In this document: positions 53,261-58,483 of the stretch, one piece after another
How positions within the stretch are numbered: position 1 is the first letter of the stretch
Layout: each line of letters begins with the position of its first letter
DNA from: Candidatus Vogelbacteria bacterium
GTDB taxonomy: Bacteria > Patescibacteriota > Minisyncoccia > Phycocordibacterales > XYD1-FULL-46-19
Direction: 5' to 3'
NCBI GenBank assembly: GCA_021414225.1
Contig: JAIOOX010000002.1
Location: 25,113-89,112, forward strand
DNA: 64,000 nt
Program-made: the position numbers and the translations under genes
The notes under the pieces: model-generated
What the model was told of the DNA's origin: nothing
Database searches by the model: none
The model's input: only the letters and a program-made list of their open reading frames with translations

Positions 53261-54142
53261 CTACATCTTGTATAGGTAGACAGTCACCGTGGTTTCCTTA
53301 CCATTGGTTGATTGGAACTTCAGTGTTCCGAGGTTGTTGAGATTGATGCCGTGGTTGACACCTTTCTCGGCTTGAGGGTTATCGGTGTAGGGCGCGTCCA
53401 TATATGGCCTCACCCCGTTTCCCACGACCATGACCACGTCGTGGGGATTGAACGTGACCTTGTAGTGGCTAACCACAAGAGTCACTTCCAGGTCCTTCTC
53501 GCCGGTTTTGGCCTTCATCTTGCCTTCCCCGGCGCTCGCTGTTTCGCCAATAGTCTTGGACCAGCCGGTGGCTGGTACAGAGACAGTGAACTTGGCGATG
53601 TCGTGTGCTCCCTCCGGTAACGGGCCGATCCGTTTGGGGTCGACCTTGGTTCCAGGTAGGGTGGGGAGACTCAAGTTCTGGAAAACAACCTTAGGGTCTG
53701 TTTCACCTAACCCATTAGCATTAGCTAGTGGAGTCAGAATCAACAAGAGTAACCCAGTGGTCAAGGCCGCTTTCCAGAAGCGTGACCTTCCAATCCTGAC
53801 GGCGTCTTTCTCGTAGGAGAGAAAGTACGAACCGCCAGCCATGAGAAGGACTACCATTGCGATGATGGTGTAGCCCGTGTTGGTCACGAACCACAAGAAC
53901 CAGGCTGGGAACACCCACCAGGTGGCGAAGACCACCACAGTCCAGTAGGCGACCCAGGCACCAGTTAGGAATGGATCCCACTCTGGACCTTTCGGTTTAG
54001 GGGCTGTTACGGGAGTGCCACCAGCAGTGGTTGTCCTGGGAGTTGGGCCTCCTGTAGATTTCCACATTTTTCTGACATCATCCCAGTATCGGAAGAGGGC
54101 TACTAACCCGATTCCGAGTAAGGCGATTGCTACCGAACTCAT
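53261..54142 (-). CDS. hypothetical membrane protein (GC-rich)
   Basis: 293 aa, about four TMs plus a beta-rich C-terminal domain; ATGA overlap with the upstream gene. Confidence 0.75.
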   Translation of the reverse strand: MSSVAIALLGIGLVALFRYWDDVRKMWKSTGGPTPRTTTAGGTPVTAPKPKGPEWDPFLTGAWVAYWTVVVFATWWVFPAWFLWFVTNTGYTIIAMVVLLMAGGSYFLSYEKDAVRIGRSRFWKAALTTGLLLLILTPLANANGLGETDPKVVFQNLSLPTLPGTKVDPKRIGPLPEGAHDIAKFTVSVPATGWSKTIGETASAGEGKMKAKTGEKDLEVTLVVSHYKVTFNPHDVVMVVGNGVRPYMDAPYTDNPQAEKGVNHGINLNNLGTLKFQSTNGKETTVTVYLYKM

Positions 54143-55521
54143 GAAGTAGAACCTTTCTTTTTCCTCGCCGGCTTTTGAGTGGCTGGCGGAGTCGTAGGTT
54201 GAGTCTCCGGTTTTGTTTCAGAGACTTTTTTCAGGGTTTGGGCGATTTGGGTTGCTATCCCCGAGATACCCCCATCGCCGATAATGTGCACGGCATTGGG
54301 GTTGCTCAGGCCTGCCTTGGCCGCGTCAATGACAAGGGCCTCTTGGCCCGACACTCCCGTGGCGGTTTGGATTTTTTTGAGTCCAGCCGCCTCGGCAGTC
54401 ATCATTCGCAGGTGGTTGTTAGCGAGAGCTTCCCCTGCGCGTTGTGTTTCCACCCCTTTCCCAATAGACTCAGCGATTTTTTGGATCTCTGCGTTGAGGG
54501 AGTGACTGGTCAACACCTTGAAGTTTTTGACCTGAGTGAATCTCAAGCCAATCTCGTCTTCTATCAGTTTTCGCAGGGCGTTAACCGATAGTCTTTTGAT
54601 ATCTGGTCTGGTTGTGGTGGTCACCTCTTTGTAGTCTATCCTGTTCTCTGCGAGAGCTTCCAGGACATATCGGGTGACGTAGCGGCTGATAGCATCAACA
54701 TTACGTTGTGCGCGGGCCGCCGTGCCTACCTGGCAGACTGAGCGCATCCCACTTTCGATCAGGTCTCGGACGTAATTTGTGGCGTCCTCGATCGAGTCGA
54801 AAGCGATGTCAAACCGCAAGCCTTTGGTGATTTGCATTGTGTAGGACGCCGACACCTCCGCAATGACCCGGGTTTTAAGCGGGTCCTTGTATTGATCGGC
54901 TATCTCATCCTTAACTTGTCCCTTGTCTGGTTTTACCACCACTGCCGGGACGAAGTTGTATTTTTCCTCGGTGGCGGGATCTCCCAAAGTTGGAGTAATT
55001 GTCACCGTCTGACTCAGTATATCTTCTTCGTCGGCAGGATCAGCGGATTCAAACGGCACAAAAATTGGTTCTATCCAATAATCTGGTACCATCTTCCCAC
55101 TGGCATCCTTTTTCATCCCTTTTGGCTCAGAGGGTAGTGGTTGCGGATTTCCTTGGTCGTCCTTTCCCCTCCAGAGATCTTCTGGGTTGGCAGGTACTTC
55201 TCGGGTGATGATCGCTCTCGGGTAACGATTGACGGTTGTCAGTCCCCAAAATCCAGGGACGATACCAGCATCGATTGATCCGATGCGATAGCCCAGAAAT
55301 TGAAGGACCCCCACATCTTTCGCGCCGTCCACTTTGGTGTGAATGGTGCCGTAGAGACAGTAGGCAATCCACCAGATCAGTACGACGTTTCTCCAGTTGA
55401 TACTGGTGGACGTCTCATTTTGATTTTCCACCGGCAGGCCGTTAGGCATTGCCAAGTAGATGATCACAAAGATTGCTACCATAACCACGATGGACCATCC
55501 TGAATACTGACGGGTTGTCAT
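54139..55521 (-). CDS. divergent SPFH/band-7 domain membrane protein
   Basis: Two TMs then DVGVLQFLGYRIGSIDAGIVPGFWG, SPFH-like core and Ala/Glu helix (AEAAGLKKI); AGGAG SD. Confidence 0.6.
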   Translation of the reverse strand: MTTRQYSGWSIVVMVAIFVIIYLAMPNGLPVENQNETSTSINWRNVVLIWWIAYCLYGTIHTKVDGAKDVGVLQFLGYRIGSIDAGIVPGFWGLTTVNRYPRAIITREVPANPEDLWRGKDDQGNPQPLPSEPKGMKKDASGKMVPDYWIEPIFVPFESADPADEEDILSQTVTITPTLGDPATEEKYNFVPAVVVKPDKGQVKDEIADQYKDPLKTRVIAEVSASYTMQITKGLRFDIAFDSIEDATNYVRDLIESGMRSVCQVGTAARAQRNVDAISRYVTRYVLEALAENRIDYKEVTTTTRPDIKRLSVNALRKLIEDEIGLRFTQVKNFKVLTSHSLNAEIQKIAESIGKGVETQRAGEALANNHLRMMTAEAAGLKKIQTATGVSGQEALVIDAAKAGLSNPNAVHIIGDGGISGIATQIAQTLKKVSETKPETQPTTPPATQKPARKKKGSTS

Positions 55522-55652
55522 CTTCTTTTCTCCTGGTTTTTGCCCTTAAGCAAACACCTTTTTGTTTGTTTCCAATCAACTGTCAACGACCTTTCAATAT
55601 CTCTACAGCAGGGGATAATAGCCCCAACTGAGTATCTTTACTTCCACTCTCT

Positions 55653-55680
55653 ATTATATCAGGTTTTATGAAAAAGTCAA
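55653..55680 (-). promoter_or_regulatory. sigma70 promoter of the SPFH operon
   Basis: TTGACT, 16-nt spacer, TGaTATAAT. Confidence 0.65.
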
Positions 55681-55736
55681 GGGGTCTTAAATAACAAAAT
55701 ACCCCTGAGAATTAGGGGGATTTTACTACAAATCCA

Positions 55737-55913
55737 GGCGAGGGGAGACTCGCCCGCGACTAAATTTTTTGTCGACACAAAAAATTTGTCTGGGCACCAC
55801 CTCGGCCCCAAACTCTGCTGAGTCTGGACTGCGTGGCCTCCGGTGTTCGAGTCTCCCCTCGCCCCTACAAAATAAAAAGCCCCAAAGCTATCGCTTTGAG
55901 ACTTAATATTTTG
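55737..55913 (-). repeat. tRNA-mirror structured module A (after tRNA-Leu TAG)
   Basis: 18-nt inverted copy (55845-55862) and 15-nt direct copy (55738-55752) of the tRNA 3' end around a structured core. Confidence 0.85.
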
Positions 55914-55995
55914 TGAGCGAGGGGAGACTCGAACTCCCAACCCGTGAGGGACTAGTTCCTAAGACTAGCGCGTATACCAATTCCGCCACTCGCCC
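55914..55995 (-). tRNA. tRNA-Leu(TAG)
   Basis: ctagt-ctTAGga-actag, variable arm, TTCGAGT. Confidence 0.95.
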
Positions 55996-56005
55996 GATGT
56001 TTTGT

Positions 56006-56163
56006 TGTGAGAAATTCGGTCACAAATAATTTTGCTGTGCAAAATTTTCGCGACCCCGCCTCGGTCACAGTCTTCGACTGGCTTTGCGACCTGTGGCTTT
56101 CGAATCCCTCACAGGGACTACCAAACAATATTCATTCAATATTTTATATTGAATTCATTTGTT
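56006..56163 (-). repeat. tRNA-mirror structured module B (after tRNA-Lys CTT)
   Basis: 18-nt inverted copy (56099-56116) and degenerate direct copy (56006-56018) of the tRNA 3' end. Confidence 0.8.
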
Positions 56164-56239
56164 TGGTGCCCTGTGAGGGATTCGAACCCCCGACCATCTC
56201 CTTAAGAGGGAGTTGCTCTACCAACTGAGCTAACAGGGC
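56164..56239 (-). tRNA. tRNA-Lys(CTT), CCA encoded
   Basis: ctcc-ctCTTaa-ggag, canonical D and T arms, ends ACCA. Confidence 0.93.
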
Positions 56240-56295
56240 AATTGTAGGATTATAGTTTATTTGAGGGGGAAATTCAATTTTATAACCAAGTAAGT

Positions 56296-56433
56296 TGGGA
56301 CTCTCCTTTGACTTAAAATTTTCTACCCGAAAATTTTAGTCTAGGCACCGCCTCGCGCCGAAATGTTGCTACATTTCGACTTCGTGCGCTCCGGCGTTCG
56401 AGTCCCACCCAAAATTTAACTTTGTTAAATTTG
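56296..56433 (-). repeat. tRNA-mirror structured module C (after tRNA-Leu TAA)
   Basis: 15-nt inverted copy (56396-56410) and 8-nt direct copy (56296-56303) of the tRNA 3' end; core homologous to module A. Confidence 0.85.
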
Positions 56434-56514
56434 TGCCCGGGGTGGGACTCGAACCCACAAGGCTTGCGCCACACGATTTTAAGTCGTGCGTGTATACCAT
56501 TCCACCACCCGGGC
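56434..56514 (-). tRNA. tRNA-Leu(TAA)
   Basis: cacga-ctTAAaa-tcgtg, variable arm. Confidence 0.95.
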
Positions 56515-56555
56515 ATATTTTTTAAAATCAATTTGCTACTGCAATTTGATTTTTG

Positions 56556-56627
56556 AGGCGTGGGCGGGAATCGAACCCGCGTATAAAGCTTTTGCAGAGC
56601 TTCGCCTTACCACTTGGCCACCACGCC
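56556..56627 (-). tRNA. tRNA-Cys(GCA)
   Basis: aagct-ctGCAaa-agctt, U73 discriminator. Confidence 0.95.
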
Positions 56628-56634
56628 TGTAAGT

Positions 56635-56958
56635 TTAAATTGTATCTGCTTCGATATCAACTAATGCCTCATTCGAAGCAAGAGCGATGTCGATACGAGG
56701 CACATTACCGATTTTTGTCTCATTACGCAAATATTCATACAGGTCGGTTCTGAGACGCTTAAGTTCTTTCAATACCTCATCGGTAGCGGTATCTGGGAGA
56801 ACTGAGACGAAGACAGTCGCACTAGCGTTGTTTTTTTCCAATACACAACCAGTGACGGTTACTAGAGCTCGAGAAGCAACATTGCGCACAAAAAATTCTG
56901 CCGCGGTGCGAGTAATAACCTCTTCAACTCGTTTGTGATGTTTGGTGTAATCGTCCAT
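56635..56958 (-). CDS. rbfA: ribosome-binding factor A
   Basis: LVTVTG..ATVFVSV..VPRIDI; directly downstream of infB. Confidence 0.8.
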   Translation of the reverse strand: MDDYTKHHKRVEEVITRTAAEFFVRNVASRALVTVTGCVLEKNNASATVFVSVLPDTATDEVLKELKRLRTDLYEYLRNETKIGNVPRIDIALASNEALVDIEADTI

Positions 56959-56971
56959 GGTTAATTATAGG

Positions 56972-58483
56972 CTATTTAGCCACTCGTTCAAATATTTCTA
57001 AAATATCACCAGGGGCAATAACGATCTTGGAATCAATCATGGTTCCAAATTGACCAGGTGGTTCAACGCGGTCGGTCTTGGCTTTATGTTGTTCAAGTTC
57101 GGCCACTTTACCTCGACCAATTTCAATGTCGCGACGGATAATTTTAATTTCTTTGCCTTTAACAAAGACACCGTCTAAGACTTGACCCCCGACTACTTGT
57201 TTATCTTTGTTGGCACTGAAACATTTTAGAATTTTGGCTCGGCCGGTTGTTTCTTCGATAGTCACTTTTGGTCGGCGTTTAGATACCTCCTCAGCTAGCC
57301 ACTCAGCTAGTTTGTAAATAATATCAAAAGTGACAATGGTAACATCAAATCGTTCAGCAATATCTTTGGCACTAGTGTCAGTTTTGACTTGGAAGCCTAA
57401 AATAATAGCGGAGTTTGAACCACTGCCTAGTTTGGCATCGTTGTCGGTGATAGCTCCAATACTCTTGCCGATAATTTTCAGGCGAACTCGTTCATCAACA
57501 ATTTTTAAAACTTCTTTTTCGACTGCTTCCAAGGTGCCAATAGTATCAGCTTTGATAATGATTGGTATTTCAATTGCATCAGCTCCTAGTTCTGGAGTGT
57601 GACTTGGGTTGTTGGTATTAGCACCTAGGGTGCGACCAGTTTTTTCATGATGATCAGCCGCTTTCTTGTCCTTTAAGCCGTTGATAATAGCTCCGACGGC
57701 TGGTACTTCAGCAAAACCGTAAAGAAGAACAGGGGAGGATAAGGTGGCTTCTTTTAAGGGTTGGCCTAAAAAGTTTTCCATCTTTTTAATTTTAGCTACC
57801 ACTCCTTCGACGCCAACATAGTCACCTAAGTGTAGGGTTCCATTTTTAATAATAGCTGTAACGGTCACTCCAATTTTTGGGTCACGATTGGTTTCCAAAA
57901 TCAAAGCTTCGCCAGGCAGGCTAGGGTCGCCACTTTTTGCTTCTAGATCTGAAACTAAAATAAGTAGATCCAGTAAATCATCAATCCCCTCACCAGTTTT
58001 AGCTGAAATATTAACACTAGGAATAGTACCTCCATATGACTCAACAAAGACTTCCTGTTCGGCTAATTCTTGTTTGACTTTATCGGGGTTGGCATTGGGT
58101 CGGTCGATTTTGTTGATAGCAACAACAAAGGGCACCCCAGCTTCTTTGACTGATTTGAGAGCCTCAATAGTTTGAGCTTTGACTCCTTCTTCAGCGGAGA
58201 CCAACAAAATAGCAATATCAGAAATTTGGGCGCCACGGTTACGCATGGAAGAAAAAGCTTCATGACCAGGTGTATCTAAGAAGGTGATGGTGTGTTCCTT
58301 TCCTTCGGTGACATGTTTAACTTCATAAGCGCTAACATGTTGAGTAATACCACCCGCTTCACCCGCGACAGTGTTTGATTTACGAATATAATCAAGCAAG
58401 GTTGATTTGCCGTGGTCAATATGACCAACAACAACCACGACAGGTGGTTTGGCTTTAATTGTAGATTGAGAATTATTAGTCAT
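56972..58483 (-). CDS. infB: translation initiation factor IF-2 (short, no N-terminal extension)
   Basis: PPVVVVVGHIDHGKSTLLD, EAGGITQH, DTPGHEAF, IIKAD..GTLEA. Confidence 0.96.
   Translation of the reverse strand: MTNNSQSTIKAKPPVVVVVGHIDHGKSTLLDYIRKSNTVAGEAGGITQHVSAYEVKHVTEGKEHTITFLDTPGHEAFSSMRNRGAQISDIAILLVSAEEGVKAQTIEALKSVKEAGVPFVVAINKIDRPNANPDKVKQELAEQEVFVESYGGTIPSVNISAKTGEGIDDLLDLLILVSDLEAKSGDPSLPGEALILETNRDPKIGVTVTAIIKNGTLHLGDYVGVEGVVAKIKKMENFLGQPLKEATLSSPVLLYGFAEVPAVGAIINGLKDKKAADHHEKTGRTLGANTNNPSHTPELGADAIEIPIIIKADTIGTLEAVEKEVLKIVDERVRLKIIGKSIGAITDNDAKLGSGSNSAIILGFQVKTDTSAKDIAERFDVTIVTFDIIYKLAEWLAEEVSKRRPKVTIEETTGRAKILKCFSANKDKQVVGGQVLDGVFVKGKEIKIIRRDIEIGRGKVAELEQHKAKTDRVEPPGQFGTMIDSKIVIAPGDILEIFERVAK

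Follow-up and report, generated by a model that had tools for sequence, protein, structure and literature searches.

Modules with mirrored tRNA ends behind Patescibacteria tRNA genes: a structured repeat that may be a site-specific insertion element

In a 64,000-nucleotide stretch of DNA from Candidatus Vogelbacteria bacterium (hereafter the window; C4:25113-89112 of the 689-kb source genome, G000), three consecutive tRNA genes were each found to be followed by a short module, in which an antisense copy and a sense copy of the 3' end of that tRNA enclose a non-coding core. Our analysis revealed that this module pattern is real, widespread and structured, and that it lies outside Rfam. On balance, each module probably represents one insertion of a non-autonomous, site-specific element, approximately 140-190 nucleotides (nt) long, with the T-loop of tRNA and transfer-messenger RNA (tmRNA) genes as its target. 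We favoured this reading because the cores move between tRNAs, the arms track the host gene, presence is patchy, and copies decay and stack. It corresponds to one of two models in a preliminary description of this DNA, that of a target-templated mobile element with rewritten arms, which gave the best fit to the comparative data but for which no partner gene was found. The host genes belong to the cluster Cys-Leu(TAA)-Lys(CTT)-Leu(TAG) on the minus strand of the window. The parts of the cluster are given below, with bit scores from R1, a covariance model built from 42 sequences that covers mainly one core subtype.

56555..56627, minus strand: tRNA-Cys(GCA), with no module behind it
56433..56514, minus strand: tRNA-Leu(TAA), host of module 1
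56411..56432, minus strand: module 1 spacer, a short AT-rich hairpin
56396..56410, minus strand: module 1 antisense arm, exact complement of 56440-56454, from G53 onward
56304..56395, minus strand: module 1 core, subtype A, a two-hairpin three-way junction; 83 bits with R1, whose training set includes it
56296..56303, minus strand: module 1 sense copy, truncated to 8 nt starting at position 57; read directly
56249..56277, minus strand: sigma-70-like promoter match before tRNA-Lys, 10/12, a consensus match only
56164..56239, minus strand: tRNA-Lys(CTT), host of module 2
56117..56163, minus strand: module 2 spacer, an AT-rich hairpin without a terminator-like site
56099..56116, minus strand: module 2 antisense arm, exact complement of 56169-56186
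56019..56098, minus strand: module 2 core, subtype B, 33 bits; a near-identical strain has another stretch here, 38 nt longer
56006..56018, minus strand: module 2 sense copy, 11/13, decayed; read directly
55913..55995, minus strand: tRNA-Leu(TAG), host of module 3; the interval between module 2 and this tRNA has no promoter match
55863..55912, minus strand: module 3 spacer, a hairpin and U-tract, terminator-like at 55877-55904
55845..55862, minus strand: module 3 antisense arm, exact complement of 55917-55934
55753..55844, minus strand: module 3 core, subtype A; 80 bits with R1, whose training set includes it
55738..55752, minus strand: module 3 sense copy, 15/15

The mirrored segments stopped at G53 (Leu-TAG and Leu-TAA) or T54 (Lys), and the periods from copy to copy were 179, 166 and 147 nt. 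The preliminary description had reported exact inverted matches of 18 nt for Leu-TAG, 18 nt for Lys-CTT and 15 nt for Leu-TAA at these positions, and all three were confirmed; the longest inverted matches among 5000 random 130-nt genome stretches per tRNA were 11, 13 and 11 nt for Leu-TAG, Lys and Leu-TAA, respectively. The sense copies that it had listed were complete for Leu-TAG, decayed for Lys and short for Leu-TAA (8/8). It had also proposed one core common to the three modules; the core was indeed shared, but it fell into two subtypes, with the two Leu cores 73% alike across 80 nt and the Lys core, which was outside the training set of R1, more distant (E value 9e-7). Only module 3 had a terminator-like spacer, the hairpin of which extended the tRNA:antisense helix. 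An Rfam search of the region, which the preliminary description had proposed, found only tRNA above the gathering threshold, and ribozyme families were absent from the list at E values up to 10. Matches to microRNA-type hairpins in this search were discarded as noise.

Inverted repeats are a known class of assembly artefact, and the contigs were built from short reads only. Fold-back chimeras of assembly or library origin are nevertheless hardly credible as an explanation, as a second assembly agreed, hundreds of divergent, covarying copies were present in other genomes, and the same layout was found in finished E. coli genomes. In this second assembly, the unitigs of sequencing run X1 tiled positions 55000-57200 with 0 differences and overlaps of 19-30 nt; this run is possibly the source of this DNA and hence not independent data, and no single piece spans the whole stretch.

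Comparison of 90 modules revealed the following order of parts: the tRNA end, a variable spacer hairpin, the antisense arm, the core and a sense copy that starts at position 57. The unit itself starts at tRNA position 57 and leaves a direct repeat of the tRNA 3' end, while the antisense copy covers positions 53/54 to approximately 73, across the unit boundary. Among the 57 sense copies that began in register, 39 extended over the full 17 nt. The antisense arm was contiguous or, in 43 of the 90 modules, split by a hairpin between its T-stem and acceptor parts; this hairpin nearly always had a 9-base-pair stem and a 4-nt loop (40 of the 43 are listed). A terminator-like site lay ahead of the arm in 37 of the 90 modules, and the spacer was often repeated after the sense copy. 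Separately, the module at L183 (tRNA-Glu of G179) had no spacer, and its anti-T arm began at the CCA end.

The core formed a three-way junction with two long hairpins that was closed via pairing of the antisense arm with the sense copy. For the hand-set core structure, 88.4% of the paired cells were complementary compared with 66.9% after shuffling and 34-45% after sliding, and covariation was 0.538 compared with 0.169 after shuffling, with two-sided changes at 28 of 38 pairs; in these statistics, the search pattern itself determined approximately 22 columns, the same sequences had served to draw the structure, and the sequences are related. The one-sided changes in core pairs were all G-U on the tRNA-sense strand, which fixed the strand of the fold but not its nature as RNA or single-stranded DNA. 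The z-scores of the core were -3.8 to -4.8 on the tRNA-sense strand and -1.9 to -4.2 on the opposite strand. With RNA parameters, the arm was predicted to pair with the tRNA at equilibrium with a probability of 0.96-0.99, and separate folding of tRNA and module cost 3.4, 9.8 and 6.5 kcal/mol in a calculation without tertiary or modification terms.

The preliminary description had proposed to test whether the arms co-evolve with tRNA substitutions, and the arms did follow the host tRNA. Over the 90 modules, the anti-T arm matched its own tRNA at 8.0 of 9 positions compared with 5.7 for other isotypes, and the sense copy at 13.7 of 16 compared with 9.3. When the own tRNA was set against the same-anticodon tRNA of another genome, it was the better match by 201:17 for the anti-T arm (16 ties), 141:25 for the anti-acceptor arm (66 ties) and 229:21 for the sense copy (18 ties), although these comparison pairs were not independent. 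There were 101 discordant sites at positions 59-65; the tRNA agreed with the sense copy at 71 of these, many of which were a fixed scaffold base at 65, the antisense arm agreed with the tRNA at 29, and the two arms agreed with each other against the tRNA at one. These counts indicated that both arms are copies of the tRNA and not a helix evolving by itself. The sense copy was perfect over 16 nt in 41 of the 90 modules. Rare T-loop variants were copied into the arm in three of three cases, namely TCC twice (both cases that occurred among 110 arms at 402 tRNAs) and TGC once (tRNA-Met of G179). As the variant bases lie 5' of the sense copy, it is the tRNA gene itself that serves as template for the arm or as the partner with which the arm is selected to pair.

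The pattern also held beyond the three tRNAs of the window, as had been expected. In the source genome, modules were found behind 13 of 43 tRNAs called by ARAGORN, and a core profile revealed 12 tRNA-downstream sites and two sites away from tRNAs; two of the 12 had no anti-T arm and one had a second core piece. The tRNA-Gln(TTG) gene of this genome had the arms with a different core. We also observed at least two more core types with tRNA-matched arms, sometimes stacked with the main type at one tRNA (G000:C4:109371-109570; L005, L008, L010, L015, L020, L023, L026, L217 and L223). Matches to R1 were found in 26 of 40 genomes of the family, with 0-11 copies per genome, and in seven of 140 genomes across the phylum. 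The latter count does not amount to absence, because the search used strict filters, scored no more than 27 candidates in each genome and relied on R1, which represents mainly one core subtype. A search of GTDB genomes with the junction pattern gave at least 121 loci; among the matches listed, 93 of 122 had a tRNA or tmRNA on the same strand no more than 400 nt upstream, and a hand count of the 80 titled rows gave 59 from Patescibacteria groups, 13 from other taxa and eight with no taxon. Some of the remaining matches were plainly coding false positives. The hosts of the 90 modules comprised 35 anticodon or tmRNA types.

To compare cores, 82 model hits from 14 genomes were taken, of which the 66 with an upstream tRNA were used and 16 were dropped. 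Mean core identity was 0.64 within a genome, between different tRNAs, compared with 0.56-0.57 between genera, and for 33 of the 66 modules the nearest core was behind a different tRNA of the same genome. Several pairs were almost identical: Lys/Pro in G193 (97.6%), Arg/Arg in G024 (95%), Ser/Arg in G110 (95%) and Val/Gln in G085 (95%). The cores of Gly(GCC) and Gly(TCC) in G008 were 100% identical and had one antisense arm in common, with a sense copy that was each tRNA's own. This is the arrangement predicted for a sense copy that arises by target duplication and an arm that is brought along and only later corrected. Presence was patchy, as the Lys(TTT) gene of genus g19 had a full module in three genomes, a truncated one in one and none in three. 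Different cores were stacked behind one tRNA, and tandem units were also seen. The Lys module of the window differs in a near-identical strain: a contig from run X4 (record 24) was identical to the window at 55825-56002 and 56162-56262, 279 nt over both flanks, with 197 nt between them compared with 159 in the window, a difference seen in one contig at a depth of 2.5. Other joints in the read-run unitigs looked like tRNA operons of other organisms and were disregarded. A metagenome scan gave no same-species alleles.

If each module is an inserted copy, the element would move as a single-stranded intermediate, DNA or RNA, folded into a closed rod that would comprise the spacer hairpin, the helix of tRNA end and antisense arm, and the core. 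The antisense arm may base-pair across the T-loop to find or hold the target, an enzyme supplied in trans would join the core at 56|57, and the arm might be written, or later corrected, through fold-back template switching on the host gene. Copies would afterwards decay, stack or turn tandem through their direct repeats.

We compared the modules with the RtT/tyrT repeats of E. coli (RF00391). In K-12, RF00391 gave 20 matches, of which 18 were inspected; one was a false hit in an rRNA operon, and the other 17 lay behind Tyr, Pro, Lys, Ser or Arg tRNAs and carried the 3' end of their own tRNA. Each carried an 18-19 nt copy of this end and most had a 6-10 nt antisense arm; in the tyrT repeats, the arm was 10 nt and the sense copy, which ran from the T-loop, was 19 nt. 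The RtT units measured 168-181 nt, and tandem and partial copies occurred. At proK, strains had zero, one or two units; 13 of 30 evenly spread strain rows were without one 168-nt unit and two had two copies. As a partial unit is left in the 'empty' allele, this is a change in repeat number and not proof of insertion. Like the Patescibacteria modules, RtT repeats stand behind a tRNA gene, have an antisense arm and end in a copy of the tRNA 3' end, and the two share short junction words: GAGAA after the arm, GAAC ahead of the first hairpin and a CCC/GGG helix ahead of the sense copy. They differ in the arm, which in Patescibacteria is longer, extends through the T-loop as far as position 53 and in many cases contains an inserted hairpin.

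RF00391, for which membership has a cut-off of 45 bits, gave no match at E values up to 10 in the region, the source genome or 10 other module loci, and R1 scored 8-11 bits on RtT copies with E values above 1, although several weak R1 matches coincided with RtT copies. The preliminary description knew of no named family; this held for the covariance models, which did not cross-match, but overlooked that RtT/tyrT has the same arm layout. To judge from sequence, the Patescibacteria module works like RtT and may be a distant relative, though it is not an RtT member by covariance model. In the parts of the literature consulted, RtT is treated as a processing-derived small RNA of unknown action and not as a tRNA-matched element: the mode of action of rttR is given as unknown, with raised mobilome coverage attributed to RNA/DNA hybrids, in passages of 10.1101/2024.07.17.603846; RtT near Asn and Lys tRNAs with Northern signals in Actinobacillus is described in passages of PMC4986893, and gain and loss of RtT between Erwinia strains in passages of PMC7542023. 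The tRNA passages of 10.64898/2026.10.21.760802 contain no such module, although its supplements or cluster tables could hold it, and PMC3184786 offered nothing on the subject. Within a literature search that left older subscription papers on tRNA-linked repeats outside its scope, neither the Patescibacteria module nor the match of RtT arms to their tRNA was found described. A broader proposal, possible but tentative, is that the modules form a class of programmable, protein-less mobile elements, with an antisense guide over the T-loop, an enzyme in trans, and a guide and repeat rewritten for each target. One core could then colonise any tRNA or tmRNA gene, and RtT/tyrT would be the enterobacterial branch.

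The main rival to an insertion element is a role as an RtT-like RNA that the host keeps within the pre-tRNA, which we consider unlikely. Such an RNA would be released in processing or act as a switch, and gene conversion would keep arms and cores in step. In the switch version, the other model of the preliminary description, the antisense arm, when not sequestered by the sense copy, would open the T-arm and the acceptor. The covariation and z-scores, which place the fold on the transcribed strand, speak for this role, as do the Northern signals for RtT RNAs in Actinobacillus. The Lys module is probably read through because tRNA-Leu(TAG) has no promoter match of its own. The energy differences of 3.4-9.8 kcal/mol between the alternative folds make a switch thermodynamically possible, and TC-to-GA swaps at the helix base, facing GA in the sense copy, suggest that the pairing of arm and sense copy matters. 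However, the sense copy that would serve as decoy is often decayed, the arms agree against the tRNA at only the single discordant site mentioned above, and the terminator-like site, where present, precedes the arm. Furthermore, congeners differ in which tRNAs bear modules, and orphan modules survive at island ends with no tRNA nearby.

Template switching at quasi-palindromes is a known process, and the modules could be an enzyme-free by-product of such switching during replication, with general repair only and no dedicated recombinase. In this route, the tRNA end would be copied backwards from the terminator hairpin, followed by a jump via the T-loop word to another core and a return at position 57. 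It would account for the copying of T-loop variants, the trailer inside the inverted repeat, the repeated spacer after the sense copy and the absent partner gene. We nevertheless judge it distinctly improbable, as on its own it leaves unexplained the strong selection on the fold, the constant stem inside the antisense arm of most bipartite modules, and the foreign antisense arm with a host sense copy at the Gly genes of G008.

Genomic islands that use the T-loop as attachment (att) site, through tyrosine or large serine recombinases, also duplicate the tRNA 3' end from the T-loop, and one such island was found in the source genome. Two features of the source genome, both outside the window, bear on the relation between islands and modules.

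G000:C4:272723-280177: island of approximately 7.3 kb behind tRNA-Glu(CTC)
G000:C5:33080-33320: second orphan module, with arms that match tRNA-Ile(GAT), behind a decayed tRNA end

The last open reading frame (ORF) of the tRNA-Glu island, which we take to be a serine-recombinase tail, runs into the antisense strand of the tRNA, and an alternative tail is present at the far end, so that the ORF seems to have been split through integration at the T-loop. PF07508 gave no match at this ORF. The att core shared by the two island ends starts at T54. The module after the far end of the island, which is the first orphan, lies 7.3 kb from tRNA-Glu and has no anti-T arm. Both orphan sites come after decayed tRNA ends, and a serine recombinase gene (PF07508 match) lies 2 kb from the second. 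As the orphans sit at decayed tRNA ends and island ends, the modules are host-side sequences and are displaced by islands.

The modules might alternatively be deletion relics of such integrase or serine-recombinase islands, that is, attL/attR with the interior lost. The insertion zone is the same, and each module is flanked by a direct repeat of the tRNA 3' end. We regard this as very improbable, as one conserved non-coding core stands behind 35 tRNA/tmRNA types, the modules lie outside the islands and are displaced by them, and coding remnants are missing. Unlike the islands, the modules have neither recombinase gene nor cargo, with no integrase or serine recombinase inside the units of 147-179 nt, and att sites yield no inverted arm.

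Returning to the insertion element, the search for a mobilising enzyme and several further observations weigh against it. The 52 nearest downstream ORFs, which belong to those of the 90 modules with enough flank among L031-L110, included no recombinase, transposase or reverse transcriptase (RT) and one LAGLIDADG; an enrichment of recombinase, HUH or RT neighbours was what the preliminary description had proposed to look for. The source genome, which is 99.6% complete, had no match to Y1 transposase, RT or IS110. Of the enzymes compared, serine recombinases alone showed an association, a weak one: they were found in 18 of 27 module-bearing genomes compared with four of 14 others (p 0.026, confounded by kinship and assembly quality), and nine module-bearing genomes had none. 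On viral contigs, three patterns gave 0, 2 and 0 matches; the two matches fell in coding-like sequence without a tRNA in sight, and phage records gave no module matches. No clean pair of empty and filled sites that agreed over long flanks was obtained, the only flank match being one of 7 nt between G018 and G196, and neither circles nor insertion intermediates were seen. Gene conversion could also have produced near-identical cores at different tRNAs. In G193, the sense copy and anti-acceptor arm of an apparently inherited module were updated to the module's own tRNA while the anti-T arm was in the state of the congeners; arm tracking is therefore partly in-place conversion, for which mobility is not needed.

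Among the other enzymes, Y1 HUH transposases were found in 20 of 27 module-bearing genomes compared with nine of 14 others (p 0.72) and were absent from G000 and G009, and RTs in 15 of 27 compared with six of 14 (hand count), with none in G000. IS110 (DEDD recombinase) was over the cut-off in none of the 41 genomes. Tyrosine recombinases were present in 40 of the 41, with or without modules, and G000 had three serine and two tyrosine recombinase matches. The candidates left are host Xer-like recombinases and island-borne large serine recombinases. The tyrosine recombinase gene of this family, usually single, often lies 3-10 kb from a module-bearing tRNA cluster (G000:C2:101002-101514 and relatives), which may be synteny.

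The attP site of CTX phage and the attC sites of integrons are folded single-strand recombination sites. The modules resemble these in having two inverted arms approximately 90 nt apart that fold to a target-like helix on one strand, a fixed extrahelical feature and a variable terminal hairpin. They differ in having a tRNA gene as target instead of dif or attI and in arms that vary with the target. Bridge RNAs of IS110, IS200/IS605 elements and REP sequences likewise combine a structured nucleic acid with a reprogrammable target-matching sequence; the modules are distinguished by a duplication of 16-20 nt and by the lack of IS110 matches over the cut-off and, in G000, of Y1 matches. In addition, the sense and antisense arms cover the same segment, whereas the guides of IS110 address different target halves on opposite strands. 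Like miniature inverted-repeat transposable elements, the modules are small and non-coding, with inverted ends and many copies, but their inverted ends copy the host gene and vary per tRNA instead of being family-constant terminal repeats.

Some further features were observed. A palindrome of approximately 28-33 nt was inserted at varied positions within modules (L192, L196, L200 and L283 of G110; L236 of G191; L222 of G190; L220 of G019) and is apparently a separate tiny mobile repeat. In the source genome, tRNA-Val(TAC) and tRNA-Arg(TCT) are convergent and have one perfect hairpin in common (G000:C3:67688-67883), which resembles a tRNA with its antisense arm. The tRNA-Ile(GAT) at G000:C3:872-1134 has separate 39-40 nt duplicates of its own 5' and 3' parts and adjoins a recombinase tail that is 95% identical to one at the start of C2. 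ARAGORN called the unusual anticodons Ser(ACT) and Ile(TAT) at G000:C2:19745-19834 and C2:31258-31332, respectively. Directly behind module 3 of the window, two ORFs of 293 and 460 amino acids with hydrophobic N-termini (53261-55521, minus strand) have their own promoter match at 55653-55680.

If the element really does retarget by rewriting its arms, bacterial genomes would harbour a new mode of sequence-guided insertion, directed at their safest landing sites, and the enzyme behind it would be a candidate for a programmable recombinase. As RtT/tyrT of E. coli follows the same arm logic in a manipulable host, the oddity becomes a testable model. If instead the RNA reading is true, tRNA maturation in genome-reduced bacteria would gain a new layer, in which a conserved fold must either pair with its own tRNA or avoid it.
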